From: Nitrospirota bacterium | Lineage (GTDB): Bacteria; Nitrospirota; UBA9217 | Direction: 5' to 3' | DNA: 64,000 nucleotides | Assembly (NCBI GenBank): GCA_963737155.1 | Contig: CAVTRN010000001.1 | Span: 1,024,001 to 1,088,000 of the forward strand | Part shown: piece by piece, positions 37,498 through 63,664 of the stretch | Position numbering within the stretch: the stretch's first letter is position 1 | Layout of the letters: each line of letters opens with the position of its first letter | The notes under the pieces: model-generated | What the model saw: only the letters and a program-made list of their open reading frames with translations | Database searches by the model: none | Told to the model about the DNA's origin: nothing | Position numbers and translations under genes: made by a program

Positions 37498-37506
37498 GAG
37501 CATTTT

Positions 37507-42486: not shown

Positions 42487-42502
42487 TGGCAATGATATTG
42501 CT
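42487..42502 (+). promoter_or_regulatory. Internal sigma54 promoter of nifB-hesA
   Basis: TGGCAATGATATTGCT. Confidence 0.82.
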
Positions 42503-42534
42503 ATAGTCATGAGTATTAGTGCAAGGAGGTTGCT

Positions 42535-45100: not shown

Positions 45101-45129
45101 TTGACAAACGTTTTGAGTTGTCTTATCAT
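45101..45129 (+). promoter_or_regulatory. sigma70 promoter of the nuo operon
   Basis: TTGACA-N17-TATCAT. Confidence 0.75.
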
Positions 45130-45190
45130 GCATGCGCTTGAGAAGTTATGATAATTTAAAATTTAATACCAGCGTAACAGGGAGAAGCGT

Positions 45191-45555
45191 ATGACTCCAA
45201 GCAGCTATCTTCCGGAACACTTTTTGCCCGTAGTGGTGTTTCTTCTTCTAGGTACCGTGGTAGGCCTTGGGATGCTATTCGCCAGCTGGATTCTCCGGCC
45301 GCGAAATCCTTACCCTGAAAAGCTCGTCACCTATGAGTCCGGCATCATCCCCTTCATGGACGCCCATCAGAAGTTCTCCATCCGGTATTACATCATCGCA
45401 ATGCTGTTCCTCATCTTCGATATAGAAGCCGTGTTCCTCTATCCCTGGGCAGTAGCGTACAACTATTTAGGTCTCTATGGTTTTGTGGAAATGGTGATCT
45501 TCGTCGCCATCCTGGTCGTGGGGTACGTTTACGCATGGAAGAAAGGGGCCCTCGA

Positions 45556-45565
<10 letters not shown>
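45191..45565 (+). CDS. nuoA: Complex I subunit A
   Basis: [27 protein letters not shown]. Confidence 0.96.
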
Positions 45566-46035
<470 letters not shown>

Positions 46036-46121
46036 TAAGACACGAATAGCTAAATACCGCAAACAGAAATAGGAACCACGCACCACGAGCGTTCAGCAGG
46101 TGCGCTTGGGAACGAGGAAGT

Positions 46122-46592
46122 ATGGACCCCTCTCAGATCGCAAAGATGGTAGAAGAAAAATTTCCCGACCAGGTCCTTGGGATATTGAATTATGCCGGAC
46201 AGGTTGGAATTTTGCTCAGGAAGGACAGGATTCAGGACATCTGTCTCTTCCTCCGTGATGAACCCTCCCTCCGGATGGATCACCTCGCCGACCTCGCTGC
46301 TGTTGATTATTCGAAGTATCCCGGCGATGCGGGGCCTCGATTCGAGGTTGTCTACAACATGATTTCCATGGTGCATCACCACCGGATTCGCCTGAAAGTG
46401 AGGGTTACGGAGGAGGACCCACGGGTGGATTCGATTTCCTCGCTCTGGCACACGGCCGATTGGCATGAACGCGAGGCTTTCGACCTCATGGGGATCAAGT
46501 TTGACGGCCACCCCGACCTTCGCAGAATCCTGATGCCTGAGGATTGGGAGGGGCACCCGCTCAGGAAGGAATATCCACTGAAAGGATATTGA
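46122..46592 (+). CDS. nuoC: Complex I subunit C
   Basis: W.ERE.FDLMGI.F.GHPDLRRIL, HPLRK. Confidence 0.96.
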   Translation: MDPSQIAKMVEEKFPDQVLGILNYAGQVGILLRKDRIQDICLFLRDEPSLRMDHLADLAAVDYSKYPGDAGPRFEVVYNMISMVHHHRIRLKVRVTEEDPRVDSISSLWHTADWHEREAFDLMGIKFDGHPDLRRILMPEDWEGHPLRKEYPLKGY

Positions 46593-46703
46593 TAAAACAA
46601 GTCCAAAGTGCAAAGCACTAGAAGGATTTCCATCGCGGAAAGATTTTATATTGCTTTTTGATTTGAACTTTGGATTTCGAAATTTGTCATATATGGTGAT
46701 TTT

Positions 46704-47897
46704 ATGTCCGCTACTGAAACCAAGGAAATAGTTCAAAAAGAAATTACTCTGAACATGGGCCCGCAACATCCGGCCACGCACGGTGTTCTGCGGCTGGTTG
46801 TCGATCTCCGGGGAGAAACCGTGGTCGGCTGCGATCCTCGTCCCGGCTATCTTCACCGCGGGATTGAGAAATGGATGGAGAGCAGAACCTATCACCAGAT
46901 CATTCCCATGACGGACCGGCTGGAGTACATCACTGGAATGAACAACAATCTCGGCTGGGTTGTTGCGGTGGAAAAGCTCGCTGGCATCACGGTTCCCGAA
47001 AGGGCACAATTCATCAGAACGCTGACCGCCGAGCTGTCCCGGCTTTCGGGCCACCTGGTGTGGCTCGGCACCCATGCGCTCGACATCGGTGCCATGACGG
47101 TCTGTATGTATACCCTGCGCGAACGGGAGCTTGTCCTCGATCTCCTGGAAATGGTGACAGGGGCGCGACAGACCGTAAGCTATGCTCGAATCGGCGGCGT
47201 GCGCAACGACGTGCCGCGTGACTTCATCGACAAGTGCAGAGAGTTCACGGAAATCTTCCCGAAGCGTCTTGAGGATTACGATACGCTCATCCGGCAGAAC
47301 CGCATCTGGCTGAAGCGTACCGTGGGCATCGGCGTAATGACAGCAGAAGAGGCGATCAACTATGGATTGACCGGAGGTTCCCTGCGCGGATCGGGTGTGA
47401 ACTATGATCTCCGAAAAGTGGAGCCTTATGCAGCCTATGACAAGGTTGAGTTCGATGTCCCTCTCGAGAAGGATGGCGATGTCTATGCCCGATACGTTGT
47501 GCGTATCAATGAGATGCGTCAGAGCAACCGGATCATCAAACAGTGCCTCGACATGATGCAGCCCGGTCCCATAACGACCGATGACACGCGTTATGCCATA
47601 CCGGAAAAAGTGAACGTGATGCAGAGCATGCAGTCGCTTGTGCACCAGTTCGTGATTATGAGCAAGTGGGTTCCCATGCCCAAGGGAGAAGTATATGTAG
47701 CCACTGAAGCGCCGAAGGGCGAACTCGGTTTTTATATTGTAAGTGACGGGAGCGGCAGACCCTATCGCGTCAAGATCCGTGCCCCATCGTACGTGCATGT
47801 GAGCGCCCTGCCGAAAATGGTGACCGGCCATATGGTGGCGGATGTGATCGCCTGTATCGGAACCATTGATATCGTGCTTGGTGAATGCGATCGGTAA
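46704..47897 (+). CDS. nuoD: Complex I subunit D
   Basis: GPQHPATHGVLR, HRGIEK, DRLEY, EAPKGE, GECDR. No NiFe CxxC motifs. Confidence 0.97.
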   Translation: MSATETKEIVQKEITLNMGPQHPATHGVLRLVVDLRGETVVGCDPRPGYLHRGIEKWMESRTYHQIIPMTDRLEYITGMNNNLGWVVAVEKLAGITVPERAQFIRTLTAELSRLSGHLVWLGTHALDIGAMTVCMYTLRERELVLDLLEMVTGARQTVSYARIGGVRNDVPRDFIDKCREFTEIFPKRLEDYDTLIRQNRIWLKRTVGIGVMTAEEAINYGLTGGSLRGSGVNYDLRKVEPYAAYDKVEFDVPLEKDGDVYARYVVRINEMRQSNRIIKQCLDMMQPGPITTDDTRYAIPEKVNVMQSMQSLVHQFVIMSKWVPMPKGEVYVATEAPKGELGFYIVSDGSGRPYRVKIRAPSYVHVSALPKMVTGHMVADVIACIGTIDIVLGECDR

Positions 47898-47913
47898 GCA
47901 AGAGGGAAACCGC

Positions 47914-48270
47914 ATGAAACTAAGAGAGATTGCCAGTCTTCTCCAGGCGCAGGTGCTTGTCGGAAATGGCCTCCTTGATGAAATCGAAGTGGACCAGTGC
48001 TTTAGTGCGGACCTGATGAGCGATGTGCTTGGCCGCTCGTATGCGAACGGCATCCTGATCACGGGGCTTACGAACCCCCAGGCGGTGCGGACTGCCGACA
48101 TAGCCGACATCAGGGCGGTCTGCGTCGTGCGTGGGAAACTGCCGGAACCAGACACTGTGGCATTGGCTAAACAGAAGGAAATCCCGCTTTTCACCACGAA
48201 GCTGACTATGTTCGAGGCCTGCGGTATTCTCTATCAAGGCGGCCTCAGGGGGGTTGCCGAACGGCAATAG
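47914..48270 (+). CDS. DRTGG-domain protein
   Basis: ADLMSDVL, LITGL.N.Q..RTA, VRGK. Confidence 0.85.
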   Translation: MKLREIASLLQAQVLVGNGLLDEIEVDQCFSADLMSDVLGRSYANGILITGLTNPQAVRTADIADIRAVCVVRGKLPEPDTVALAKQKEIPLFTTKLTMFEACGILYQGGLRGVAERQ

Positions 48271-48274
48271 GCTG

Positions 48275-49228
48275 ATGGCATTGCAGGGAAAAGAGCCGGA
48301 CACTCTGGACAGGGTGACCAAGACACAGGAAATGGCCTATGAGGTCACCGTCGGCGAGGTAATGGCCCCCAAGATGGTGACTGTAAGCCCGGAGCAGACC
48401 ATGGCGGAGTTCAGGTTTATTCTCCGGGACAACCGAATCTCCGGAACGCCGGTGGTCGAGTACGGCAGGCTCGTGGGCATGGTCAGTATTGAAGACTTGA
48501 TCAACGCTCTGTATGACAACGCTATCAATGCTCCCATCCGGGAGAGAATGAAAACAAATGTTCAATGTCTCTATGACGACGAACGCCTCGTTCACTGCAT
48601 CGCCAAATTTTCCAAGCTGGGATACCGACGGTATCCCGTACTGAACCGGAAGGAAGAGCTGGTCGGCATCATCACCAAGGGGAGTATTGTCGAGGGACTG
48701 CTCAAGATGCTTGAAATGGAGTATGAGCAGCATGAGACAAATACAGCCATTACTCGCCAGCGGCCCACGGTGCGAAAGTTCTTTGAAGATGTGACGGCCG
48801 ACGATATCAGCTTCACATTCAAATACAATGTTGCTGGGCAATCCCTGAAGGTGGCGGGTAAAGCTGCGAGCGAGCTGAAAAGCGCACTAAAAAAATTAGG
48901 TGTCTGTCCTCCGCTTCTCCGAAGAATCGGAGTGGCAACCTATGAAGCGGAGATTAATCTCGCATCCTATACCAAAGGGGGAGAGATTCGTGCCCAGGTA
49001 GAGAAATGGGGGGTCACGATAGAAGCTGTCGATTACGGACCAGGGATTCCCGATATCGAGCTGGCCATGCAGCCGGGATATTCCACGGCGCCTGACTGGG
49101 TGAGGGAGCTGGGTTTCGGAGCGGGGATGGGCCTGGTAAACATGAAGAAGTGCGCCGACGAAATGACCCTGAAATCCACTGTACCCGACGGAACGCACCT
49201 GACCATGCAATTCTATTATACAACGTGA
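48275..49228 (+). CDS. CBS-pair + RsbT-like Ser/Thr kinase (GHKL ATPase) fusion
   Basis: Two CBS domains (SGTPVV, RRYPV), then YEAEIN, DYGPGI.DI..AMQPGYST, GAGMGL. Confidence 0.85.
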   Translation: MALQGKEPDTLDRVTKTQEMAYEVTVGEVMAPKMVTVSPEQTMAEFRFILRDNRISGTPVVEYGRLVGMVSIEDLINALYDNAINAPIRERMKTNVQCLYDDERLVHCIAKFSKLGYRRYPVLNRKEELVGIITKGSIVEGLLKMLEMEYEQHETNTAITRQRPTVRKFFEDVTADDISFTFKYNVAGQSLKVAGKAASELKSALKKLGVCPPLLRRIGVATYEAEINLASYTKGGEIRAQVEKWGVTIEAVDYGPGIPDIELAMQPGYSTAPDWVRELGFGAGMGLVNMKKCADEMTLKSTVPDGTHLTMQFYYTT

Positions 49229-49316
49229 TCCCGTGGCTGGGATCGTTCGAGTGCTAGCGGGGAGCATCGTGAAAGGAACCTGCGCTGATCGCCGGAGGGG
49301 CTTCATAGAGTCAGAC

Positions 49317-49658
49317 ATGACCCTGAATGATTTAGTAAAAGAATTCGATCTTCAAGTGAAAGCTGGCACCGGCCTTCTCGACCGGGAAGTTGCCGGTGGA
49401 TATGTAAGCGATCTTCTTTCGGATGTGCTAGCCCACGCCGAAGATGGGGTTCTGTGGGTCACGCTCCATGTTCATCAGAACATTGTCGGCGTGGCTTCTC
49501 ACAAAGGGTTGGCGGGCATCGTGCTGGTGCAAGGAAGAGTTCCCGAAAAAGATACGGTGGCAAAGGCCGAAGAAGAGGAGATCCCGATTATGGTCACCGA
49601 CCTTTCGGCCTTCGAATTCGTAGGCAGGCTCTATAAGGCGGGGATCCGTGGCGCTTAG
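49317..49658 (+). CDS. Second DRTGG-domain protein
   Basis: GGYVSDLLSDVL, WVT...H.N.V.VA. Confidence 0.83.
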   Translation: MTLNDLVKEFDLQVKAGTGLLDREVAGGYVSDLLSDVLAHAEDGVLWVTLHVHQNIVGVASHKGLAGIVLVQGRVPEKDTVAKAEEEEIPIMVTDLSAFEFVGRLYKAGIRGA

Positions 49659-50394
49659 GCGCATAAAGGCCGATCTGCACGTGCATACCTGCCTGTCCCC
49701 TTGCTCCGGTCTTGATATGTCGCCTCGTGAAGTGGTGAGCGCAGCGATGCGCAAGGGAATGGATCTGATCGGTGTGTGCGATCATAATTCGGCGGAAAAC
49801 GTTCTAGCCGTAAAAAAAGCAGGCGAGCGGAACGGTCTGATGGTGCTCGGCGGGATGGAAATCGCTTCTTCCGAAGAAGCGCACATCCTGACGTTCTTTG
49901 ACGATGACGACGATCTCCTAGTTTTCCAGGAATACGTCTATGAACACCTCGAGGGCAGAAATGATGAGCGTGCCTTTGGCCTGCAGGTCATCGCCGATGA
50001 TGAAGACGGCGTGACCGGTTTTTGTGACCGCCTCCTGATTGCAGCGACAACGCTTCCCGCGGAAGCAATCGTCGCGCAGGCGCGCGCGGCAAGAGGCGAG
50101 AGCCTGGTGATCGCCGCGCATGTGGACCGCGAATCTTTCAGCATTATCGGTCAGCTTGGATTCATCCCACCTTCGTTGGCCTTGGATGCCGTTGAAGTCT
50201 CAGCACACATGAGTGTGGACGAGGCGAGAAAGCGTTTTCCTGATTGCAGACACTACCCGGTGATTACCGGTTCCGATGCGCACGGGCCCGAGGACATTGG
50301 TAAACGATTTACCTGCTTCACCGTTGACGGTGGTACGGCGTCTGAAATCAAAAAGGCGCTTGCGGGCAGGGACGGTAGGAAGGCGGTATGCTGA
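49648..50394 (+). CDS. PHP-family phosphoesterase
   Basis: DLHVHTCLSPC, CDHN, GME, AHVDR, SDAH. Confidence 0.9.
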   Translation: MALRRIKADLHVHTCLSPCSGLDMSPREVVSAAMRKGMDLIGVCDHNSAENVLAVKKAGERNGLMVLGGMEIASSEEAHILTFFDDDDDLLVFQEYVYEHLEGRNDERAFGLQVIADDEDGVTGFCDRLLIAATTLPAEAIVAQARAARGESLVIAAHVDRESFSIIGQLGFIPPSLALDAVEVSAHMSVDEARKRFPDCRHYPVITGSDAHGPEDIGKRFTCFTVDGGTASEIKKALAGRDGRKAVC

Positions 50395-50398
50395 GGCG

Positions 50399-50935
50399 GT
50401 GGAAGATATCTCGCTCCATATTCTCGATATCGCCGAAAACTCAGTCCGCGCCGATGCTAGAACAATAGAGATCACGGTAACGAGGGATATTCGGCAGGAT
50501 TTGCTTTTGGTCGAAGTAATCGACGACGGCAGGGGAATGGATTCAGCGACGCTTGCGAGGGTCCGGGACCCGTTCTTTACAACGAAGCACAAGAAAACCG
50601 GCTTGGGAATTCCACTTCTGTCCCAGACAGCGGAGCAGGCTGGCGGGAAAGTAACGGTAGAGTCCGCGCCGGGAAAAGGGACGAAAGTACTGGCCATCTT
50701 CGGCTGGAGCAACGTAGACCGGCCGGCGATCGGAAACGTGGCCGATACACTGATGACCCTCATAGCGGGGCATCCTGATCTCGATATCGTTTATACCGAA
50801 CAGGATGGCGAGCGGGTTTTCCATTTCGACACACGGGAGATTAAGAGCGAGCTCGAAGATGTCCCGATCAGCGCACCGGAGGCGCTCAGCGCGGTGCGAG
50901 ACCTGCTGCGGGAAGCGATACGAATCAAACAGTAA
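50399..50935 (+). CDS. Stand-alone histidine-kinase-like GHKL ATPase
   Basis: DISLHILDIAENS, DDGRGM, DPFFTTK, GLGIP. No sensor domain. Confidence 0.85.
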   Translation: MEDISLHILDIAENSVRADARTIEITVTRDIRQDLLLVEVIDDGRGMDSATLARVRDPFFTTKHKKTGLGIPLLSQTAEQAGGKVTVESAPGKGTKVLAIFGWSNVDRPAIGNVADTLMTLIAGHPDLDIVYTEQDGERVFHFDTREIKSELEDVPISAPEALSAVRDLLREAIRIKQ

Positions 50936-50963
50936 TATTTTACGGGAGCGGAAGAGGTAGATC

Positions 50964-51476
50964 ATGAGTAACGATGCTGTTGCACAGCCGCCTGTCAGTG
51001 AAGATGTGGATATCATAACGTCAGATATGTACCAAAAAATCGACGTGATCATCGAAAAGTACAAGGACAAACCCGGTTCGCTCATCCCGGTACTCCAGCA
51101 GGCGCAGGATGTTTGCGGCTATCTACCCCATATCGTTCAGCGTTATATCGCGAAGGGGCTCAAGATGTCGCCGAGCGTGGTTTTCGGCGTAGCAACCTTC
51201 TATTCCTTCTTCACGCTGGTACCTCGCGGCAAGCACGTGATTCGCGTCTGTCTCGGAACGGCATGCTACGTGAAGCGAAGCGAGGAAATTCTCGATAAAA
51301 TTAAGGACGAGCTGGATCTTGAGGTCGGAGAAATCACGAGAGACAAGAAATATTCCCTGGAAGCTGTGCGATGCCTCGGCGCCTGCGGCCTAGCCCCCGT
51401 TGTGGTTGTGGGCCAGGATACCTACGGCGACGTGGTAGCCACAAAAGTTATGGACATTATCAAGAAGTACGAATAA
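50964..51476 (+). CDS. nuoE: NuoE/HydC/HndA-like [2Fe-2S] subunit
   Basis: VATFY, CLGTAC, CLGACGLAPV. Confidence 0.93.
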   Translation: MSNDAVAQPPVSEDVDIITSDMYQKIDVIIEKYKDKPGSLIPVLQQAQDVCGYLPHIVQRYIAKGLKMSPSVVFGVATFYSFFTLVPRGKHVIRVCLGTACYVKRSEEILDKIKDELDLEVGEITRDKKYSLEAVRCLGACGLAPVVVVGQDTYGDVVATKVMDIIKKYE

Positions 51477-51500
51477 AAGTACGGAAAATACAGGTGAGCC

Positions 51501-51884
51501 ATGGCTAAACTGACGATTGCAGACTTGAAAAAAATCAAGGAAAATTATCACGCGAACCAGGCGCTGCGCGAGGGCGGTTTCCGCGTAAAGGTCACTGTAC
51601 ACATGGGGACCTGCGGGATTGCCGCTGGCGCCCGGAGCATCATGAACGTGGTGATGGAAGAAATGGCGAAATCCAATCTGAAGGATGTCGCGGTCACCAC
51701 GTCGGGCTGCGCCGGACTCTGCAGTAAGGAACCCATGGCAACCATCGAACTTGCCGGCGAACCGCCCGTGAAGTATATCTCTCTTACGGAAGACAAGATG
51801 CGTAAAATTTTTGCCGAACATGTCATCGGCGGGAAACCGGTGGCTGACTTTGCCCTGGTTATGGGGCATGAGACGACGTATTAA
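51501..51884 (+). CDS. HndB/HydD-like thioredoxin-fold ferredoxin
   Basis: MGTCGIAAGA ... GCAGLCSKEP ... EHV.GG.PV. Confidence 0.85.
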   Translation: MAKLTIADLKKIKENYHANQALREGGFRVKVTVHMGTCGIAAGARSIMNVVMEEMAKSNLKDVAVTTSGCAGLCSKEPMATIELAGEPPVKYISLTEDKMRKIFAEHVIGGKPVADFALVMGHETTY

Positions 51885-51891
51885 GACGTCG

Positions 51892-51927
51892 GTTTGAACC
51901 GTTCGGACTGCACAAACAGCTTAAACT
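51892..51927. repeat. Nonamer tandem related to 34352-34387
   Basis: GTTTGAACC GTTCGGACT GCACAAACA GCTTAAACT. Confidence 0.55.
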
Positions 51928-51947
51928 GCTAAATGGAGTAAGATATC

Positions 51948-53738
51948 GTGGAGACAACTTATCGCTCAAACATAATGATCTGCGCGGGCACGGGCTGCGT
52001 GGCAAACGGGTCACTTAAGGTCAAAGATGCGCTCGAGACCGAGCTTATCAAACGAAACCTTCAGAACGAGGTCAAGATCGTACTGACCGGGTGCAACGGA
52101 TTTTGCGCCAAGGGGCCGGTCATGGTGGTCTATCCCGAAGACATTTTTTACCAGGTCGTGAAGCCCGAGGACGTCCCGTATCTTGTAGAAGAACATTTCA
52201 TCAAAGGCAGACCAGTACAGAAATTCCTCTACACACCGCCGGCGGAAAAAAAGACGATTCCGGTGATGAACGAGATTCCCTTCTTCAAACACCAGGTGCT
52301 CCGCGCACTGCGAAACCGGAGTCTTATCGACGCCGAAAAGATTGAGGAATACATCGCCCGCGACGGTTATTTGGCTGCTGCTAAGGCACTCACCGAGATG
52401 ACTTCTGAACAAATCGTAAACGAGGTGAAGAAGTCAGGCCTCCGCGGACGCGGTGGCGCGGGATTTCTCACTGGCCTCAAGTGGGAACTTTGCGCGCGCG
52501 TTCCGGGGGAAGTCAAGTACATCCTGTGCAATGGCGACGAAGGCGACCCGGGAGCATTCATGGACCGTAGCGTCATGGAAGCCGATCCGCATTCCGTGCT
52601 TGAGGGAATGATCATTGCTGCAAAGGCTATCGGCGCCCATTTTGGCTATATCTATGTCCGGGCCGAGTATCCTCTCGCAGTGCACCGTCTCCAGCTTGCG
52701 ATCAATCAGGCCAAGGAGAATGGTCTGCTGGGGAAGGACATCCTAGGCACCGGGTTCGATCTCGATATTGAAATCTACCAGGGCGCCGGCGCGTTTGTCT
52801 GTGGCGAGGAAACGGCCCTTATGGCCTCCATCGAGGGGAAGCGCGGCATGCCGAAGCCCAAGCCGCCGTTCCCGGCAGTCAAAGGTCTGTGGATGAGGCC
52901 GTCAGTGCTCAATAACGTTGAGACTTTTGCGAACGTGCCGCCGATCATCCTGAACGGGGCTGACTGGTTTGCGAGCCTCGGAACTGAGAAGAGCAAGGGG
53001 ACAAAGGTCTTTGCGCTGTCCGGCGCTCTCAATAATATCGGCCTTGTCGAGGTGCCCATGGGCACCCCGCTCAAAACCATTATCTTCGACATCGGCGGTG
53101 GCATCAAGAACAATCGGAAGTTCAAGGCCGTGCAGATGGGTGGCCCGTCGGGTGGGTGTATCCCCAATACGCTAATCGATACGCCCGTGGATTTCGAGAA
53201 CATCAACAAAACCGGCGCTATCATGGGCTCAGGCGGGATGGTTGTCATGGATGAGACCACCTGCATGCCTGCCATGGCTAAATTCTTTCTCGAATTCACC
53301 GAGGACGAGTCCTGCGGCAAGTGTGTGCCCTGCCGCATCGGAAACAAAACGCTTCTCTCGATTCTCACCCGCATCACGAACGGAGAGGGCCGCGAAGGTG
53401 ACCTTGAGTTGCTGCTCGCCCTCTCGCAGCAGATCAAGGACACGTCGCTCTGCGGTTTGGGCCAGACATCGCCGAACCCGGTTTTGACGACGATCAAATA
53501 CTTCCGTGACGAGTACGAAGCTCACATCAAGGAACACAAGTGTCCTGCACGGGTATGTACGCCGCTGGTCAAGTTCGTGGTGGACCCGAACAAGTGCAAG
53601 AAATGCGGCCAGTGCTTCAAGGCCTGCCCGGCCGGTGCGCTTAAATGGGAAAAGGGCCAGGTTGCCTACATCGATCCGGAGAAGTGCACGAAGTGCAAGT
53701 CCTGCATCAAGGCGTGCCGGTTCTGGTCGATTGACTGA
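51948..53738 (+). CDS. nuoF: Long NuoF of HydB/HndC type (FMN/NADH site, N-terminal [2Fe-2S], C-terminal 2x[4Fe-4S])
   Basis: CAGTGC..GCNGFC, GRGGAGF, DEGDPGAFMDR, GAGAFVCGEETAL, GGPSGG, ESCGKCVPCR, H..EHKCPARVC and two CxxCxxCxxxC motifs. Confidence 0.93.
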   Translation: METTYRSNIMICAGTGCVANGSLKVKDALETELIKRNLQNEVKIVLTGCNGFCAKGPVMVVYPEDIFYQVVKPEDVPYLVEEHFIKGRPVQKFLYTPPAEKKTIPVMNEIPFFKHQVLRALRNRSLIDAEKIEEYIARDGYLAAAKALTEMTSEQIVNEVKKSGLRGRGGAGFLTGLKWELCARVPGEVKYILCNGDEGDPGAFMDRSVMEADPHSVLEGMIIAAKAIGAHFGYIYVRAEYPLAVHRLQLAINQAKENGLLGKDILGTGFDLDIEIYQGAGAFVCGEETALMASIEGKRGMPKPKPPFPAVKGLWMRPSVLNNVETFANVPPIILNGADWFASLGTEKSKGTKVFALSGALNNIGLVEVPMGTPLKTIIFDIGGGIKNNRKFKAVQMGGPSGGCIPNTLIDTPVDFENINKTGAIMGSGGMVVMDETTCMPAMAKFFLEFTEDESCGKCVPCRIGNKTLLSILTRITNGEGREGDLELLLALSQQIKDTSLCGLGQTSPNPVLTTIKYFRDEYEAHIKEHKCPARVCTPLVKFVVDPNKCKKCGQCFKACPAGALKWEKGQVAYIDPEKCTKCKSCIKACRFWSID

Positions 53739-53892
53739 TTATTGAACGATCTGGAACCTCAGATCCGGCGCAGACGCATGACACACAGTGAAGCGAATAT
53801 CAGATCCAACGTTCGAAACCGCGGGCATCGGCGTATCCTATGACGAAGTCAGGATTCGTGGTTTCATAATATACAAAAAAAGGTAGAAATCT

Positions 53893-56013
53893 ATGCAGAA
53901 GATATCGGTTACAGTTGACGGAAAAAAAGTTGAAGTGCCTCTCGGAGCGACGATTCTCGAGGCGGCGAATGCTGCGGGATCGCGAGTCCCGACGTTGTGC
54001 CACGACAACAAACTCCACCCCTTCGGCGCGTGCAGGATCTGCCTCGTCGAAGTGGAAGGCACACCGCGCAAGTTCACGCCCTCCTGCACGACGCCGGCGA
54101 CGGACAACATGGTCGTGAAAACCTCCACACCGTCGCTCATCGAGGCGCGGAGGATGGTGCTTGAACTGCTGCTGATCAAGCATCCCCTTGACTGCCCGGT
54201 CTGCGACAAGGCAGGCGAGTGCTCACTCCAGGATTTGGTGCATGAGTACGGGCTGGGTACGAGTAGATTCGACGCGGAGAAGGGCTACCTTCCGCCGGAT
54301 TATGAAAGTGCAATTATCGAGCGCAACATCAGCCGGTGCATCCTTTGTGGAAAATGCGTCCGTATCTGCGACGAACAAAATGCCGTGGGCGAGTGGGCCT
54401 TCACACGGCGTGGAACGCGGGCACGGATTAGCACCGATTTCGACCGGCCCCTGGACTGCGAGTTCTGCGGAGAATGCGTGGAGATCTGCCCGGTGGGCGC
54501 GCTAACCACGCGCCAGTTTAAGTACAAGGCCCGGTCATGGAATCTCGAAGCGACCTCGTCGGTCTGCAATTACTGCGGCTGCGGCTGCAATGTTTCCTAC
54601 GAGACCCGTGACGGCAAAATCATGAGGGTGGGCCCCGCGAAAAACAATTATCTCTGCACCAAGGGGAGGTTCGGCTGGGATGCAACGCATCATGCCGATC
54701 GTCTCACCACGCCGAAGATGCGCGTGGGAGGAGAGCTCGTGGACTGCACATGGGAAGAGGCGCTGTCGGTCATTGCGACCAATCTCAACGTGATCAAGGG
54801 CAAGGGCGGTGCTGACAGCATCGGAGGTTTGGGATCGGTTAGGACCACGAACGAGGACAGCTATGTGTTCCAAAAATTCCTGCGCTCTGTCGTGGGGACT
54901 GCCAACGTAGACATGCTTGCAAGGCTCAAGACGCCGAAAGGACTTAATACGTCCTTCTTTTCCGGGGAACTGAACAGGATTATTGAGCATGAAGTTATTC
55001 TCGTGCTTGACCCGAATGTGGGTGAGATTAACCCGCTTACGGGCATCGAGATCGTTCGTGCGGTCAACAAGAAAGATCGGAAACTGATTCTCGTGAACGA
55101 CGACTATAACAAGTTCAATAAGATCGCGACTGTCGTGCTTCCTATGAGCACGGACAAGGCGCTCGATGAGCTCCTTTCGGCGCTCGCCTCACGGGTTGGC
55201 AATGAAGCAGACAAGGCCGTCCAACTGCTCAAGGGAGCAAAGAATGTGGCGGTCATTGTACCTGCGCAGCTTTCGGACAAAGCACACATGGGGATCAGGG
55301 ATTTGGCAGGAAAGCTCCAGAATGTTACCTTCTATCCCCTGGTGCGGAGGAGCAATTATCAGGGTTCGCTTGATATGGGTATCGTTTCCGGTTATCTCCC
55401 CGGTTACCGAAAAATGGATAAGCCGGGCATGAACGCCGTTGAAATGCTCGATGCGGCCAAGACCGGCAAGCTTGTCTCTCTCTATATCATGGGAGACGAT
55501 CCTGTGGGAAGCGATCCGGGCCTGAAGCAGACCCTCGAGAAGCTCGAATTTCTCGTGGTCCAGGACATCTTTATGACCGAGACCGCGAAGCTCGCCCATG
55601 TCGTGCTGCCCGCTGCCAGTTCAGCGGAGAAGTCAGGGACCTTCACCAATGTGGAGCGCAGGCTCCAGCAGTTGAACAAAGCGGAAGAACCTGTCGGGGA
55701 ATCGCGCTTGGACTGGGAGATCATCCAGGATATTGCGAAAAGGATGGGTGGCTCCTTAAGTTATGTGTCCGACCGGGACATCCTGAAGGAGATCCGGTCT
55801 GTCGTGCCGTCTTACGCCGATCTCGCTGTGGGTGCCTGCTGGGCGCGCGAAAAGTCACCAATTGCCGGCTCGTCAGAGGACCTCTCCCTGGAATCGGATA
55901 CAATCATGAAGCAGGAAGTAATCACCGCGGAACGGCTGCTTTTTTCCTCAGGGGTCAGCATCACGCGTTCTCACGAAATAGGAACGATCAGACATTACAA
56001 GATCGAAGTGTAG
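53893..56013 (+). CDS. nuoG: NuoG-like subunit (Fe-S relay plus non-catalytic molybdopterin-oxidoreductase fold)
   Basis: [2Fe-2S] motif, HPLDCPVC, CILCGKCVRIC, CEFCGECVEICP, CNYCGCGC..LC. No Fdh catalytic Cys/Sec. Confidence 0.88.
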   Translation: MQKISVTVDGKKVEVPLGATILEAANAAGSRVPTLCHDNKLHPFGACRICLVEVEGTPRKFTPSCTTPATDNMVVKTSTPSLIEARRMVLELLLIKHPLDCPVCDKAGECSLQDLVHEYGLGTSRFDAEKGYLPPDYESAIIERNISRCILCGKCVRICDEQNAVGEWAFTRRGTRARISTDFDRPLDCEFCGECVEICPVGALTTRQFKYKARSWNLEATSSVCNYCGCGCNVSYETRDGKIMRVGPAKNNYLCTKGRFGWDATHHADRLTTPKMRVGGELVDCTWEEALSVIATNLNVIKGKGGADSIGGLGSVRTTNEDSYVFQKFLRSVVGTANVDMLARLKTPKGLNTSFFSGELNRIIEHEVILVLDPNVGEINPLTGIEIVRAVNKKDRKLILVNDDYNKFNKIATVVLPMSTDKALDELLSALASRVGNEADKAVQLLKGAKNVAVIVPAQLSDKAHMGIRDLAGKLQNVTFYPLVRRSNYQGSLDMGIVSGYLPGYRKMDKPGMNAVEMLDAAKTGKLVSLYIMGDDPVGSDPGLKQTLEKLEFLVVQDIFMTETAKLAHVVLPAASSAEKSGTFTNVERRLQQLNKAEEPVGESRLDWEIIQDIAKRMGGSLSYVSDRDILKEIRSVVPSYADLAVGACWAREKSPIAGSSEDLSLESDTIMKQEVITAERLLFSSGVSITRSHEIGTIRHYKIEV

Positions 56014-56022
56014 GAGCAGAAT

Positions 56023-57108
56023 ATGCCCGAAATGAACCAAATACTTCACCTTCTCTTCACTATAGGCATCCCCGCTGTTATACTGCTGGCATTCATCTTG
56101 GCCAACGCCATGTACCTGCAGCTCATGGAGCGCAAGGTGCTCGCGCATATGCAAGGACGTCTGGGGCCGATGCGTACCGGCTGGCATGGGATCCTTCAGC
56201 CGATCGCCGATGCCGTCAAGTTCATGATGAAAGAGGATATCATTCCTGCGAAAGCTGACAAGTGGGTGTTCAGCATAGCTCCCCTGATCCTGCTTGTGAT
56301 GGCGTTTGGTGCCATGGTGATAATTCCCTTTGGTCCGCCCACGAACTTCTTCGGACTTTTGTCGAAGAAGGTTCCGCTCTGGGTATCTAACCTGAACGTA
56401 GGCGTGCTTTTCATCCTTGCTTTTTCAAGCGTGGGAACCTACGGTGTGATCATGGCGGGTTGGTCTTCGAACAATAAATACTCGCTTATGGGCGGTTTCC
56501 GCTCTGCGGCGCAGATGATCAGCTACGAAATCCCGATGGCATTTTCGATTCTGACTGTGGTCCTCATGGCGGGATCGCTTAATTTATCCGATATCGTAAA
56601 CGCGCAGGCTCACCGGTGGTTTATCGTGGCACTGCCCGTCGGGCCGGTGGCCTTTTACCTCTACCTCATGTCGGGCATTGCCGAAACGAACCGCGTGCCC
56701 TTTGACCTGCCGGAAGCGGAGAGCGAACTGGTGGCGGGGTATTTCACCGAGTACAGTGGTATCCGGTTCGGTATATTCTACATGGCCGAATACATGAACA
56801 TGATCGTCGTTTCGCTGCTTGTTTCCATCATGTTCTTGGGCGGCTGGCTTCCGGTCCAGATTTTGCCGCACACACTCGGCCATATCGCCCCGATTGCATT
56901 TATCAACAAGATGCTTGCGGCCATCCCGCCGACGATCTGGCTGCTTGGAAAACTGTATTTCTTTATCTTCTTCTATATGTGGCTGCGCGCAACACTTCCG
57001 CGATACCGGTACGACCAGCTCATGGCGATATCCTGGAAGATCATGCTACCCATTTCTCTGGTTACGTTGCTGGTTGCAGCGGGCATGAAGCAGATAGGAT
57101 GGCTGTAA
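56023..57108 (+). CDS. nuoH: Complex I subunit H
   Basis: ERK..A..Q.R.GP, QPIADAVK, RSAAQMISYE, PFDLPEAESEL. Confidence 0.97.
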   Translation: MPEMNQILHLLFTIGIPAVILLAFILANAMYLQLMERKVLAHMQGRLGPMRTGWHGILQPIADAVKFMMKEDIIPAKADKWVFSIAPLILLVMAFGAMVIIPFGPPTNFFGLLSKKVPLWVSNLNVGVLFILAFSSVGTYGVIMAGWSSNNKYSLMGGFRSAAQMISYEIPMAFSILTVVLMAGSLNLSDIVNAQAHRWFIVALPVGPVAFYLYLMSGIAETNRVPFDLPEAESELVAGYFTEYSGIRFGIFYMAEYMNMIVVSLLVSIMFLGGWLPVQILPHTLGHIAPIAFINKMLAAIPPTIWLLGKLYFFIFFYMWLRATLPRYRYDQLMAISWKIMLPISLVTLLVAAGMKQIGWL

Positions 57109-57150
57109 AACAGTTCGGTGATCAGCGTTCGGAGTCAGGAGTATAAAACG

Positions 57151-57621
57151 ATGAGTAAAGTGAACAAGCTGCTCAAAACGATCTTTCTGGTCGAAATAGC
57201 TCAAGGCATGGTATTAACGCTTAAGACCATGTTGACCCCAGCCATTACACGGCAGTATCCAACGTTCAAGCGCAAACCGATCCCCGGATCGCGCGGACTC
57301 CACGCCATGAGGCGCGACGATTCGGGCCAGAAAGAGCGCTGCATCGGATGCGGCCTGTGCGAAGCAGTCTGTCCCTCGAAAGCCATCACGGTGGTGACGT
57401 CCGAGGGCGTGGAGCACGAGAAAGTCATAAACTCATACGAGCTCGACCTACTCCGTTGCGTATTTTGCGGTTTCTGCATCGATGCGTGCCCCGTATCGGC
57501 CATCATCATGACGCCTGAGTTCGAGCTGGCCTGCTATTCAAGAAAAGATGCGTTCTATACCAAGGATCGGCTTATCGCAGTGGGCGATCACTACCTCGGC
57601 GGGAAGGCGGTAAAAAAGTAA
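57151..57621 (+). CDS. nuoI: Complex I subunit I
   Basis: CIGCGLCEAVCP, CVFCGFCIDACP. Confidence 0.96.
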   Translation: MSKVNKLLKTIFLVEIAQGMVLTLKTMLTPAITRQYPTFKRKPIPGSRGLHAMRRDDSGQKERCIGCGLCEAVCPSKAITVVTSEGVEHEKVINSYELDLLRCVFCGFCIDACPVSAIIMTPEFELACYSRKDAFYTKDRLIAVGDHYLGGKAVKK

Positions 57622-57622
57622 T

Positions 57623-58129
57623 ATGATGAACCAGCTTATTTTCCTCTATTTTGCCACGGTCATCTTGGTATCTGCCGTGCTCACGGTCACACGCACTAAT
57701 CCCGTGCACAGCGTGATGTTCATGCTGCTCCTATTTTTCCACATTGCCGGGATCTTCGTGCTTCTGAATGCGGAGTTTCTCGCGGCGGTACAGCTGATCG
57801 TCTATGCCGGAGCCATTCTGATCCTGTATCTCTTTGTCGTGATGCTCCTGAACGTTGACCGGGAAAGCTCCGCCGCTCGGGCGAACCGTTTCTGGCCCTG
57901 GATGGTAGGCTTTGGCCTGTTGATCTCCGGTGAGGTGATGCTCCTTGTAGTGCGGGGCACGTTCCCGGCAGAGGAAGGGATTACCATGAGGCCTGCCGGC
58001 AGCGGCATTAAAGAGCTCGGCATAACGCTTTATCAGAATTACCTGGTGCCCTTCGAAGCTGCGTCCATCATTCTGCTTGTGGGCCTGGTGGGGGCGGTGA
58101 TGCTGGCGAAGAGAAGGGCGAATGATTAG
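57623..58129 (+). CDS. nuoJ: Complex I subunit J
   Basis: NPVHS, AEFLA.VQLIVYAGAI, PFE. Confidence 0.95.
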   Translation: MMNQLIFLYFATVILVSAVLTVTRTNPVHSVMFMLLLFFHIAGIFVLLNAEFLAAVQLIVYAGAILILYLFVVMLLNVDRESSAARANRFWPWMVGFGLLISGEVMLLVVRGTFPAEEGITMRPAGSGIKELGITLYQNYLVPFEAASIILLVGLVGAVMLAKRRAND

Positions 58130-58135
58130 AGTATT

Positions 58136-58634
58136 AAGAGTCTGATGCGTTTGTAGAGTTTACTGAGTTGATAGTGTCCGGGATTTTGGTTCCAATCCTA
58201 TGATCTCTTTAGACACTCAGATCCATTCTGGAGGTTTTATGATTCCCTTGTCCTGGTATATCATGCTGAGCGCGGCGTTGTTCACCATTGGTGTCGTGGG
58301 CGTGCTGAGCCGACGCAATATTTTTATCATCCTAATGTCCATTGAACTTATGCTGAACGCCGCGAATATCAACCTTGTGGCGTTCTCGCATTACCTGCAG
58401 TCACTTACGGGTCAGATTTTCGTTATGTTCGTAATCACCGTGGCCGCAGCCGAGGCCGCCGTGGCGCTGGCAATCATCATCCTTCTCTCGCGCAACCGCG
58501 GGAGCGTTTATGTGGATGAGTTCAATATCATGAAAGGATGAGATGAGTCGATAATGTCTAAAGAGCAACTTCGGCAAAAGTCCATCATCTCAAACCATAA
58601 GACTCCACAAACTCTTTAAACCCTTCAGGCTCTT
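58136..58634. repeat. Nested inverted repeats flanking nuoK
   Basis: 58136-58168 vs 58602-58634 (25/33 reverse-complement identity) and 58205-58215 vs 58555-58565 (11/11). Confidence 0.6.
58239..58541 (+). CDS. nuoK: Complex I subunit K
   Basis: [17 protein letters not shown]. Confidence 0.96.
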
Positions 58635-58675
58635 GGGACTGATCGGACTCTATAGACTCACAACCGGGAGTGTTT

Positions 58676-60610
<1,935 letters not shown>

Positions 60611-60660
60611 CCGTTCCACGATCAAGATATAAAGTTCATAGTAAATAAAGGAGCTTCTCA

Positions 60661-62199
60661 ATGCTCGAATTAAAACCCGATCAGCTGGGGTATCCATTGC
60701 TGAGCTTTATGATCTTTCTACCCATACTCGGGGCGTTTCTGCTTCTGTTTGTCAGGAATGCATCCATGGCGCGCTGGTTCGCGCTTGGTATTTCGGTAGC
60801 CGAACTTGCTCTTTGTATTCCGCTTCTGGCGAACTTCGACGCGACCATCCCTCACATGCAGTTCGGCGAGAGCATGTCCTGGATCGCGGCATGGAACATC
60901 AATTACCGCCTCGGCGTCGATGGCATCAGCGTTCTGTTCGTGGTCCTGACTTCGCTGCTGACGACAATATCCATCATGGTGTCCTGGAGGGCCATTCAGG
61001 ACCGGGTCAAGGAGTTCATGCTCTCGCTGCTGTTCCTGGAAGCGGCGATTATTGGCGTGTTCGTGTCCCTGGATCTTTTCCTTTTCTATATCTTTTGGGA
61101 AGCCATGCTCATTCCCATGTACCTCCTGATCGGCGTCTGGGGAGGGCCGAACCGGCTGTATGCGGCGATTAAGTTCTTCTTGTATACCCTTGTGGGAAGT
61201 GTGCTCATGCTCGTCGCGATCATCGCGGTGTATTTCGCGGCGGGACATACATTTGACGTGCTGGCACTCATGAATTACAAATTCGGCCGTACATTCCAGA
61301 TGGTAGCGTTCGCCGCTTTCTTCGCGGCATTTGCGGTCAAAGTGCCTATGTTCCCGTTCCATACGTGGCTGCCGGATGCCCATGTGGAGGCACCGACAGC
61401 CGGCAGTATCATCCTGGCAGGTATCCTTATCAAGATGGGAGCCTATGGGTTCCTCCGCTTCTCGCTGCCCTTTTTCCCCGATGCGGCACTTGCCTGGACG
61501 CCTGCCATCATGACCCTGTCCGTGATCGCCATCATCTACGGGGCGTACATGGCCTTTGCGCAGACGGACTTCAAGAAACTTATCGCCTATTCAAGCGTGA
61601 GCCACATGGGATTCGTCACCCTCGGTATTTTCGCGTTGAACAGCCAGGGGCTCGAAGGTGGCATTCTCCAGATGCTGAACCACGGAATTTCAACGGGTGC
61701 TTTGTTTCTCGCCGTGGGCGTGATCTATGAACGGACGCATACAAGGCTGATTGCTGACTACGGCGGAATTGCGTCCCGGGTCCCGGTATATGCGACCTTT
61801 CTGCTGATCATCGTTTTTTCATCGATCGGTCTTCCGGGGACCAACGGTTTTATCGGTGAGTTTACGATCCTGCTTGGCGCATTCCTGCACGACAAGCCAT
61901 ACGCCGTGATCTCGTCCCTCGGTATCATCCTTGGCGCGGGGTACATGCTCTGGCTGTACCAGCGCGTGGCGTTCGGCAAGATAACCAACCCGCACAATGA
62001 ACACCTTGCCGATATGAACCTTCGTGAGGTGGCCGCGGCGCTGCCGCTCGTGCTGCTGGTGTTCGTGATCGGTCTTTATCCGAACGCGGCTTTCGGCATA
62101 ATGCATGTGTCCGTATCGAACCTGATTCAGCATATGCAAGCTAAGGCGGAGTCAGCGCCGGCTATGGCGCAGACGCTCGGTACGATATTAGGAAAATAA
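60661..62199 (+). CDS. nuoM: Complex I subunit M
   Basis: FWEAMLIPMY, KVPMFPFHTWLPDAHVEAP, AYSSVSHMG. Confidence 0.97.
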   Translation: MLELKPDQLGYPLLSFMIFLPILGAFLLLFVRNASMARWFALGISVAELALCIPLLANFDATIPHMQFGESMSWIAAWNINYRLGVDGISVLFVVLTSLLTTISIMVSWRAIQDRVKEFMLSLLFLEAAIIGVFVSLDLFLFYIFWEAMLIPMYLLIGVWGGPNRLYAAIKFFLYTLVGSVLMLVAIIAVYFAAGHTFDVLALMNYKFGRTFQMVAFAAFFAAFAVKVPMFPFHTWLPDAHVEAPTAGSIILAGILIKMGAYGFLRFSLPFFPDAALAWTPAIMTLSVIAIIYGAYMAFAQTDFKKLIAYSSVSHMGFVTLGIFALNSQGLEGGILQMLNHGISTGALFLAVGVIYERTHTRLIADYGGIASRVPVYATFLLIIVFSSIGLPGTNGFIGEFTILLGAFLHDKPYAVISSLGIILGAGYMLWLYQRVAFGKITNPHNEHLADMNLREVAAALPLVLLVFVIGLYPNAAFGIMHVSVSNLIQHMQAKAESAPAMAQTLGTILGK

Positions 62200-62209
62200 G
62201 GAGAAACCG

Positions 62210-63664
62210 ATGTCCAGCTTGCCTCAGGAATTCATGCAATTTCTCGCTCCGGTGCTGCCCGAGGCCGTTGTCCTTATTACGGCAATCCTCGTTCTTCTCT
62301 TCGATCTTTTCATCGAGAAGGAGGGCAAAGCACTCTTGGGCTGGTTGAGCGTGGCGGGAATCGCGGTCGCGGCCGTAGTCACTTACCACTCGATGGGATT
62401 GAATGAGGCCGTATTCAATGGCACCTTTCTCGTCGACCCCTTCTCAACGTTCTTTAAATTCGTTTTTTACATCGCCTGCGGGCTTGGGATATTAGTGTCC
62501 ATCAATTATCTGAAGGTTGAGGACATCCATCGAGGTGAGTACTATGCACTCATGCTATTCGCCACGAGCGGTATGATGCTCATGGCGTCGGCAGGCGACC
62601 TCATAACCCTCTATCTCGGTCTTGAGCTTATGGCGCTTTCGATTTACATCCTTGCGGGCTTCATGCGCCAGGATAACCGGTCGAATGAAGCCGCCATCAA
62701 GTATCTGGTTCTCGGTGCGTTCTCGTCGGGAATCATGGTCTACGGTATGTCGCTCGTCTATGGTCTTACCGGAACAACAAATCTTGGGCAGATTCTCGCG
62801 TTTCTGCATGACGCCAATCTCAATAATCCTGTCCTCTACTTGGCCATGATTATGCTGATCGTGAGCTTCGGCTTCAAGGTCGCGGCCGTACCGTTTCATA
62901 TGTGGGTGCCCGATGTATACGAGGGGGCGCCGACTTCCGTTACGGCCTTCATGTCCGCGGGCCCCAAGGTCGCGGGATTTGCCGTTCTGCTTCGGGTATT
63001 CCTGTATGCCTTCGAGCCGCTCCATGCTCATTCAACGGTCATTCTTTCGGGACTGGCTGTGCTCACCATGGCTGTGGGCAACATCATGGCATTGTCCCAG
63101 ACCAATATCAAGAGGATGCTTGCTTACTCGTCCATCGCCCATGCGGGCTATGCACTAGTCGGACTGGCTGCCGGCGGTCCTGAAGGAGCGGCCAGCGTGA
63201 TGCTTTATGTCTGTATCTACGCGCTCATGAACATGGGGGCATTTGGAGTAGTGATCATGCTTAGAAAGGCCGGCGCGCGGGGTGAGGAGATCACCGACTT
63301 CGCAGGGCTTGGCAAGACCAATAAGACTGCGGCCCTGCTCATGCTCATATTCATGTTCTCGCTTACCGGGATTCCGCCCACCGCGGGATTTATTGGCAAG
63401 TTCTACATCTTTAAATCAGCGATCCAGGCAGGACTCTTGTGGCTTGCAATCGCGGGTGTTCTCTTTTCGGCCATTAGCGCCTTCTTCTATCTCCGCATCA
63501 TCATGGTCATGTATATGAATGAACCGAAAGAGAGCATTGAACTCTCCATTTCGCCGTCCCTCGCGCTGGCGTTGGCGATATCGGTTACAGCCGTCATTGT
63601 CATCGGTGTCTATCCCGCCGAGCTCCTTAATTATGCGCGCGCGTCGATTTCGGGGATATTGTAG
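62210..63664 (+). CDS. nuoN: Complex I subunit N
   Basis: EAAIKY, FKVAAVPFHMWVPDVYEGAP, KRMLAYSSIAH. Confidence 0.97.
   Translation: MSSLPQEFMQFLAPVLPEAVVLITAILVLLFDLFIEKEGKALLGWLSVAGIAVAAVVTYHSMGLNEAVFNGTFLVDPFSTFFKFVFYIACGLGILVSINYLKVEDIHRGEYYALMLFATSGMMLMASAGDLITLYLGLELMALSIYILAGFMRQDNRSNEAAIKYLVLGAFSSGIMVYGMSLVYGLTGTTNLGQILAFLHDANLNNPVLYLAMIMLIVSFGFKVAAVPFHMWVPDVYEGAPTSVTAFMSAGPKVAGFAVLLRVFLYAFEPLHAHSTVILSGLAVLTMAVGNIMALSQTNIKRMLAYSSIAHAGYALVGLAAGGPEGAASVMLYVCIYALMNMGAFGVVIMLRKAGARGEEITDFAGLGKTNKTAALLMLIFMFSLTGIPPTAGFIGKFYIFKSAIQAGLLWLAIAGVLFSAISAFFYLRIIMVMYMNEPKESIELSISPSLALALAISVTAVIVIGVYPAELLNYARASISGIL

Follow-up and report, generated by a model that had tools for sequence, protein, structure and literature searches.

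A 20-gene complex I operon

We analyzed a 64,000-nucleotide window from a Nitrospirota bacterium (assembly GCA_963737155.1, contig CAVTRN010000001.1, positions 1,024,001 to 1,088,000) and describe here a complex I (nuo) operon whose NADH-oxidizing head is of the electron-bifurcating (Bfu) type. Open reading frame (ORF) and profile analysis resolves a run of 20 genes from nuoA to nuoN, all on the + strand (45191..63664): nuoA, nuoB, nuoC, nuoD, a cassette of five genes, BfuC, an HndB-like gene, BfuB, nuoG, and nuoH to nuoN. Intergenic gaps are at most 154 bases, the GC content stays at 50-56% without a step, and there are 11 terminator-like sites against a chance expectation of 12.8; one transcript for the whole operon is plausible. 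A first-pass annotation had described nuoA, H, J, K, L, M, and N as complete, with an HndB-like gene between nuoE and nuoF. Its nuoE, HndB-like, nuoF, and nuoG ORFs do sit at the coordinates that it claimed, and nuoA-D and nuoH-N were all found by profile. This gene picture holds for the head and the nuo genes, but the five genes between nuoD and nuoE (47866..50935) had been overlooked.

A head of the bifurcating type

The BfuC gene (also HndA or NuoE; 50964..51476) encodes 170 residues that match PF01257 (E = 7e-50), and the four Cys ligands of its C1 [2Fe-2S] cluster (C96, C101, C137, and C141) are invariant in 40 sequences. BfuB (HndC, or long NuoF; 51948..53738) has 596 residues, with flavin mononucleotide (FMN) and NADH sites and sites B1-B5. 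The N-terminal thioredoxin-like domain (PF01257, residues 6-82), the C-terminal 4Fe-4S dicluster domain, the H526-x5-C532-x4-C537 site, and the AFM (203-205), GAFVCGEE (281-288), and GGPSG (398-402) motifs that had been reported for it are all present, and the sequence of E. coli K-12 NuoF does read PGTYKDR and GRYICGEE. Further domain matches are PF01512, PF10589, and two copies of PF00037; the SLBB Pfam model went unscored, yet GGPSG is there. The ligands of the B5 site (C12, C17, C49, and C53) are invariant among 40 homologues, and the C-terminal cluster cysteines lie at C550-C560 and C580-C590.

The predicted B2 ligands are C439, T477, H526, C532, and C537, of which the three Cys and the His are invariant in the 40 sequences. 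In Acetomicrobium mobile (A. mobile) HydB, the equivalents are Cys438, Cys/Thr476, His525, Cys531, and Cys536, so that Thr477 here replaces Cys476. Thr at this position is the majority variant, found in 1055 of 1558 BfuB sequences (PMC9304861). BfuB also carries A203-F-M205, F283, and GGPSG 398-402, that is, all three residue features proposed to mark bifurcation: A/E-x-M at the NADH site, Phe at the FMN site, and GGPSG (Losey 2020, PMC7311640). Among 40 homologues, there is little or no variation in the B2-B5 ligands or in the AFM, Phe, and GPSG motifs, and BfuB identity within the family is 76-97%. Known non-bifurcating homologues lack B2-B5 (PMC9304861). Because zinc sits in the B2 and B5 sites of one archaeal Bfu enzyme (PMC12018979), iron-sulfur (Fe-S) cluster counts made from sequence are upper bounds.

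Comparisons with solved structures agree with these residues. Nine full-length Bfu-type beta subunits score 679-848 bits against BfuB, led by A. mobile HydB (7t2r_B), while the non-bifurcating FdsB, Nqo1, and NuoF score at most 387 (best classical Nqo1/NuoF, 385). Bfu enzymes fill the first 15 places among the structural matches of an AlphaFold model of BfuB (mean predicted local distance difference test [pLDDT] score, 78.7). Against the classical NuoF profile TIGR01959, BfuB reaches 499 bits, below the cut-off of 559, and it falls outside the description of a classical short NuoF. BfuB shows all of the sequence hallmarks published for electron-bifurcating BfuB/HydB subunits, in line with the first-pass annotation. 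Every sequence criterion applied thus supports assignment of the head as a BfuBC/HndABC-type unit.

NuoG and the complex I core

The gene after BfuB encodes NuoG (BfuA; 53893..56013), a 706-residue protein scoring 444 bits against TIGR01973 (cut-off, 470). It has five Fe-S motifs (A1, A2, two CxxCxxCxxxC, and N7/A5) and a molybdopterin-like domain that appears catalytically empty. Formate dehydrogenases, its top matches in the PDB, read ARVCHSP where NuoG reads ARLKTPK, with Lys-Thr for the catalytic Cys-His; profile searches detected no molybdopterin-binding domain PF01568 in NuoG. The hallmark of formate dehydrogenase-type (type 1) Fdh-Bfu enzymes, a Mo/W-ligating Cys/Sec-His together with a molybdopterin-binding domain, is therefore missing. 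Lacking both a catalytic Cys/Sec-His and a C-terminal molybdopterin domain, the NuoG module would have no soluble substrate of its own, and, judged by its sequence, NuoG can only be an electron wire. The FeFe-hydrogenase domain PF02906 was absent from NuoG and from the source genome in profile searches.

The rest of complex I is intact. NuoA (45191..45565; PF00507) has E49, D77, and E79 at the positions of E. coli E51, D79, and E81. NuoB (45535..46035, with a likely start at 45556) scores above the cut-offs of NF005012 and TIGR01957 and keeps C45, C46, C111, and C140 of the N2 cluster, and NuoC (46122..46592) scores above that of TIGR01961. NuoD (46704..47897; TIGR01962, 559 bits against a cut-off of 459) retains the quinone-site residues that had been pointed out, in GPQHPATHGV (H22 and H26) and RLEY (Y75). 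nuoH (56023..57108; PF00146) begins 9 bases after nuoG, and its product keeps the acidic residues. Profile matches identify nuoI, nuoJ, and nuoK (57118..58541), with NuoJ Y61 and NuoK E49/E85 kept, and the antiporter-like nuoL, nuoM, and nuoN (58670..63664; PF00361) are identical to E. coli NuoL/M/N at 24 of 24 positions compared. Over all subunits, 40 of 40 residues are identical to E. coli (NuoL 10, NuoM 8, NuoN 6, NuoK 2, NuoJ 1, NuoA 3, NuoH 9, and NuoD His26), at E. coli residue numbers that we take to mark the pump and the quinone site. The N2 ligands are kept and the Fe-S motif chain through NuoG, NuoI, and NuoB is unbroken. The enzyme shares with E. coli Nuo and Thermus thermophilus Nqo the full set of core subunits, the N2 ligands, the His/Tyr of the quinone site, and the pumping residues. 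Unlike BfuB, classical NuoF has about 420-445 residues, lacks B2-B5 and GGPSG, and carries T-x-K and Tyr.

Exchange of heads on one backbone

A search with NuoG returned 73 loci, which partly overlap those of our other locus collection; the relatives recovered are mostly Nitrospirota metagenome-assembled genomes. The full arrangement (nuoD-cassette-BfuC-HndB-BfuB-nuoG) is present in 35 of the 73. At nine loci, the position between nuoD and nuoG is taken by a classical NuoF that is short, carries T-x-K and Tyr, and lacks the C-terminal domain, and six are stand-alone nuoEFG units; the remainder are cut short or lie in other contexts. Among 56 genomes of the family, 29 have the Bfu head only, 21 have the family-type classical NuoF (10 without and 11 with a Bfu head), and in 6 neither head was seen. 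Two genomes of one genus (G018 and G211; loci L041 and L223) have both heads in a single operon: nuoD, classical nuoE and nuoF, cassette, BfuC, HndB, BfuB, and a single nuoG.

We find that NuoG from all operon types forms one clade (20 rows; Shimodaira-Hasegawa-like approximate likelihood ratio test, 100); all trees here are quick trees. Grouping the family NuoG with the NuoG of other Nitrospirota complex I was rejected (approximately unbiased test, p-AU = 9e-4). In a tree of NuoD plus NuoH, Bfu and classical types interleave, with at least three changes of head, and the backbone is near-identical across head types (NuoD, 81-95%). A classical ancestor with one insertion of the Bfu head was tried on this tree and rejected, both for a classical-head clade (p-AU = 8e-8) and for a Bfu-head clade (p-AU = 3e-5). 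An ancestor with both heads followed by repeated loss may be one history that fits, with transfer as another candidate. The head very likely belongs to complex I, because NuoG appears non-catalytic and orthologous operons combine the same NuoG family with classical NuoEF.

These operons provide matched natural pairs, in which the same promoter and NuoG family go with a head of the Bfu type, of the classical type, or with the two together. Along with the dual-head operon, they are the main value of this system, as they allow direct tests of whether added ferredoxin raises the H+/e- ratio with menaquinone and of how complex I changes its input module.

Several variants were seen among the loci. 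In the dual-head operon of G018, a cyclic nucleotide-binding protein (PF00027; L041:18364-18912) is encoded between nuoD and classical nuoE, and classical-head operons have a gap of similar size at that place. At one locus (L098 / L172), two BfuB genes (83% and 75% identical) stand in tandem. Its second copy, like the single copy of L095, has GGSAG for GGPSG and failed to match the NADH/FMN motif patterns; such copies are possibly altered or inactive heads. In family genomes without a nuo-borne head, L178 and L229 encode a 1026-residue BfuB fusion with HndB, HATPase, PHP, and DRTGG genes and a short-matching BfuA, a set that is probably hydrogenase-linked. In L058, L059, L060, and L062, the genes nuoB, C, D, G, and I are clustered, and neither membrane nor EF genes intervene.

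Relation to predicted Nuo-Bfu enzymes

The concept of complex I with a Bfu head is not new. Nuo-Bfu was predicted as a type 3 Bfu enzyme with this mechanism, from 51 sequences with Nitrospirae among the hosts and Geobacter sulfurreducens as an example, and its BfuB falls in clades 38 and 39 (clade counts of 26 and 16, against the total of 51; Schut et al. 2022, PMC9304861). The present operon is a variant of this predicted system. As in Nuo-Bfu, BfuABC replaces NuoEFG in mid-operon, the BfuB motifs are present, BfuA has A3/A4-type motifs and no catalytic domain, and menaquinone is the predicted third substrate. Unlike the 14-subunit Nuo-Bfu, there are 20 genes here (the 14, the HndB-like gene, and five cassette genes), and NuoG has 706 residues versus 868-886 in full-length copies from deltaproteobacterial operons and from another Nitrospirota family (f10). 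The available parts of PMC9304861 do not mention exchange with classical NuoEF, and those of PMC12142623 and PMC10553843 do not describe the arrangement of this operon.

Other long NuoF proteins occur in 14-gene operons, in f10 (55-56% identical) and in 7 of 20 further loci, 6 of which end like the G. sulfurreducens sequence in the supplement of PMC9304861. In trees that omit some long or partial rows and whose groups were named after viewing them, a single clade of BfuB with f10 14-gene BfuB was rejected (p-AU = 1.6e-5), as were one with Geobacter-like 14-gene BfuB (p-AU = 2e-6) and one of all 25 operon-borne long NuoF. Complex I thus appears, from these trees, to have been paired with Bfu heads more than once; clades 38 and 39 were compared through proxy sequences, and overlap of this BfuB lineage with the Schut set is possible. 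Deltaproteobacterial operons that share the Hnd-type layout group with the BfuB clade as well; of the best 20 of 30 deltaproteobacterial matches (from 301 genomes), 4 lie within nuo operons. The homologue search returned only close relatives with automatic names. In the f10 proteins (L064, L159, and L160), AFM and every extra domain are present, but the FMN site has Tyr (GAYVCGEE), the non-bifurcating residue by the Losey criteria (PMC7311640).

The closest solved relatives of BfuB are from A. mobile NiFe-HydABCSL (7t2r, 848 bits), whose operon likewise carries hydD and hisK, and A. woodii Hnd/HydABCD (7q4v, 807 bits). Unlike the enzyme predicted here, both are soluble, with H2 as third substrate at a NiFe site or H-cluster.

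A signalling-type cassette and an HndB-like protein

Of the five overlooked genes between nuoD and BfuC, two encode DRTGG-like proteins, and the others encode a CBS-kinase fusion, a PHP phosphoesterase, and a lone HATPase. The first DRTGG-like protein (47914..48270; PF07085, E = 5e-5, below cut-off) has a D-L-M-S-D-V-L motif conserved in 35 loci. Next comes a fusion of a CBS pair with a kinase/ATPase domain of the anti-sigma (SpoIIAB-like) type (48275..49228; two PF00571 and PF13581, with TIGR01925 at E = 1e-12, below cut-off), whose ATP-binding motifs are kept in 37 loci. The second DRTGG-like protein (49317..49658; PF07085, E = 1.5e-4, below cut-off) is a paralogue of the first (37% identity). 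The PHP-family phosphoesterase (49648..50394; PF02811 and PF13263) keeps its metal-site motifs in 37 loci. The stand-alone HATPase_c (HisK-like) protein (50276..50935, with the true start probably near 50399) matches PF02518 only, and a profile search detected no phospho-acceptor domain in it. Overall, catalytic-type motifs of the cassette proteins are kept in 35-37 loci. Against solved structures, the CBS-kinase matched in its CBS domain only, and the second DRTGG protein had no solved relative at E < 0.04. Beside the metal-binding histidines, the PHP protein has a conserved H-T-C-L-S-P-C (49648-49720), a possible redox-sensitive site.

We find that the cassette and the Bfu head behave as one unit, though these kin genomes are not independent. 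The CBS-kinase gene is present in 40 of the 56 other family genomes (each at least 80% complete), and these are the same 40 that carry an orthologous BfuB, 39 of them at 76% identity or more and one as a frameshifted copy. Judged by their domains, the five genes are likely to control the head through a kinase and phosphatase, with the CBS domains likely sensing adenine nucleotides. In partner-switching modules of the SpoIIAB/RsbW type, a kinase phosphorylates a small antagonist and a phosphatase reverses this. The cassette resembles them, as far as its genes tell, in having a sensor domain on a GHKL-type kinase, small partners with a conserved Ser, and a phosphoesterase. Unlike them, its partners are DRTGG-like rather than STAS proteins, its phosphatase is PHP rather than PP2C, and it has no sigma factor. 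Our literature search, which covered few subscription journals, found nothing on such a cassette with a bifurcating hydrogenase and kinase, and only two unrelated-looking titles that pair DRTGG with hydrogenase. The cassette is widespread and apparently unstudied, and is now tied to a defined enzyme.

The HndB/HydD-like gene between nuoE and nuoF (51501..51884) is present as the first-pass annotation had it, but its 127-residue, thioredoxin-fold product (a weak PF01257 match) has three cysteines (C38, C70, and C74) and H34, not four cysteines. The cysteines are invariant and the His nearly so in 40 sequences; because there are three Cys and a His instead of four Cys, a cluster in this protein is uncertain. 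Its best PDB matches are the N-terminal domains of NfnB/StnB. A complex prediction with BfuB plus BfuC scored 0.49 (best control, 0.00; contact agreement between runs at least 81%, partner pLDDT at least 75), which lends weak support to an interaction. The mark for these scores was reached by 116 of the 157 solved pairs and by 2 of the 215 mismatched ones, and the range up to 0.60 holds only 18 of the 157 solved pairs, yet both passing mismatches. The protein may be a loosely bound accessory subunit.

A sigma-70-type promoter-like site (TTGACA-17-TATCAT, 45101..45129, + strand, 11 of 12 consensus matches) lies upstream of nuoA, and all 27 upstream regions that we compared (21 from Bfu-type and 6 from classical-type operons) have a similar one. 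Between it and nuoA lies an AT-rich element (TTAGAAGTT..TAATTTAAAATTTAAT-like, 45137-45167), kept in most of the 27 regions in both operon types; it is a possible operator or second promoter. Control by the repressor Rex is unsupported: a profile search found no PF06971 gene in the source genome, and Rex-like sites (4 mismatches) occur in 4 of the 27 regions and nowhere in the window.

Proposed mechanism and alternatives

The source genome (4.84 Mb, 2 contigs, 100% complete by markers) encodes ferredoxin-linked 2-oxoacid oxidoreductases, carbon monoxide dehydrogenase/acetyl-CoA synthase (CODH/ACS), DsrA, heme-copper oxidase-family proteins, and one NiFe hydrogenase large subunit above the PF00374 cut-off. 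Both sources and sinks of reduced ferredoxin are present. Two PF02621 genes point to the futalosine pathway of menaquinone synthesis.

By analogy with characterized Bfu enzymes, we propose, at a probability of roughly 55%, that the enzyme confurcates NADH and reduced ferredoxin, their merged electrons reducing menaquinone as protons are pumped. The first-pass annotation had inferred such a three-way NADH, ferredoxin, and quinone enzyme, in either direction, a reading that the sequence supports in part. The Bfu head would, we infer with good reason, dock on NuoG. NADH would enter at FMN and ferredoxin at B3/B4, as in NiFe-Bfu (PMC9304861); the merged electrons would leave through B1 and pass along the clusters of NuoG and NuoI to N2 and menaquinone, and the membrane arm would pump protons during menaquinone reduction. 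Using potentials from PMC9304861, we calculate 0.21-0.25 V for NADH alone to menaquinone (40-48 kJ per 2 electrons, or 2.7-3.3 H+ at 150 mV) and about 0.30-0.32 V for the mean of both donors (57-61 kJ per 2 electrons, or 3.9-4.2 H+ at 150 mV). We have moderate confidence in the forward direction and moderate confidence that ferredoxin use would be obligatory; Wor-Bfu is strictly coupled although both of its reactions are downhill (PMC9304861).

A number of observations weigh against this proposal. Our literature search found neither a characterized or assayed Nuo-Bfu, a term that we traced to PMC9304861 only, nor a characterized complex I in which electron bifurcation takes part. Modules that other Nitrospirota families encode outside nuo operons group with this BfuB clade as close relatives, and the enzyme purified from A. 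mobile contained neither HydD nor HisK (PMC8880783). The source genome also encodes RnfC and a second, E. coli-like complex I (C1:1132420-1147671), which make the role of the complex I described here hard to read from the genome. The backbone does not require a Bfu head, since ten family genomes have the classical head only. Finally, because NADH alone reduced 68% of the clusters in the BamGHI Bfu module (bioRxiv 10.64898/2026.04.10.717634), a downhill acceptor may not need ferredoxin. This last point would suit a head that is a plain NADH dehydrogenase despite its bifurcating anatomy, with ferredoxin optional or the extra clusters regulatory, as would the downhill path from NADH to menaquinone and the swapping of heads on one backbone at least three times. 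We nevertheless consider it unlikely, given the near invariance of the B2-B5 ligands and the AFM, Phe, and GPSG motifs in 40 sequences, the high identity of BfuB in the family, the absence of B2-B5 from known non-bifurcating homologues, and the two genomes that keep both heads in one operon, which fits different functions.

The same enzyme might instead run mainly in reverse, with the proton-motive force pushing electrons from menaquinol into the head, where they would be split to NAD+ and ferredoxin to feed nitrogenase and the Wood-Ljungdahl pathway. In its favor, Bfu enzymes can work in both directions (PMC9304861), the genome has CODH/ACS and one NiFe hydrogenase, nif genes lie 1-12 kb ahead of the operon on its own strand, and the second complex I could handle forward flow. 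If true, a single membrane enzyme would make NADH and ferredoxin together from menaquinol. At 4 H+ per 2 electrons, however, this direction requires more than about 150-160 mV, the Rnf complex could also make reduced ferredoxin, and nifD is uncorrelated with the head (matched in 22 of the 40 genomes that carry the head and 9 of the 16 that lack it), which led us to reject a link to nitrogen fixation; we judge mainly reverse operation to be improbable. That lack of a nifD link also counts against a Fix-like bifurcation, in which electrons from NADH would be split uphill to ferredoxin and downhill to menaquinone. Such a split is thermodynamically feasible, as in EtfABCX (PMC10734219), and would supply nitrogenase, but the characterized Bfu enzymes described in PMC9304861 and PMC12018979 keep NAD and ferredoxin on the same side of the reaction, and we give it almost no weight. 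A soluble module (cassette-BfuC-HndB-BfuB, with or without NuoG) for CODH, formate dehydrogenase, or hydrogenase, merely lodged in the operon, also seems very unlikely. It would agree with the sister modules outside nuo operons in other Nitrospirota families and deltaproteobacteria, and with the formate dehydrogenases at the top of the PDB matches of NuoG. Yet the formate dehydrogenase and CODH loci of this genome have BfuBC genes of their own, no FeFe-hydrogenase domain was found in the genome, complete as it is by markers, and an operon without the head would have no NuoEF, while 29 of the 40 head-bearing genomes showed no family-type classical NuoF.

Beyond confurcation itself, we raise as a doubtful idea that one NuoG socket takes either a classical or a bifurcating head, that the cassette and HndB-like protein choose the working head or its direction, and that the Bfu head in reverse would make NADH and low-potential ferredoxin from menaquinol, driven by the proton-motive force.

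Other loci and neighboring genes

The source genome contains further Bfu genes. A Wood-Ljungdahl cluster (C1:336000-349500) encodes ACS, corrinoid proteins, a methyltransferase, BfuCB, a formate dehydrogenase with one in-frame TGA that likely encodes selenocysteine, formyltetrahydrofolate synthetase, and a GltD-like protein. A second locus (C2:1339192-1346554), a possible Codh-Bfu variant, encodes BfuC, BfuB, a 201-residue NADH_4Fe-4S/dicluster protein, a 733-residue NuoG-like protein, and a CODH/prismane-family protein. Elsewhere (C2:1646000-1661500) lie two adjacent membrane clusters resembling group 4 hydrogenases (Hyf/Ehr-type).

Within the window, a complete-looking nif cluster (33488-44174) ends 1 kb before the nuo operon on the same strand; it comprises nifH, nifD, nifK, a fused nifEN, a NifX-like gene, two PII-like ORFs, and genes for a ferredoxin, a GNAT protein, a NifB-like radical SAM protein, and a ThiF protein. 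Ahead of it are what we take to be a nitrogen-regulation region, with two ammonium-transporter-like genes and an NtrB/NtrC-like pair (3750-8247 and 13638-16284), and, after an amino-acid permease gene, a presumed PP2C-like phosphatase fused to a Ser/Thr kinase (978-2777).

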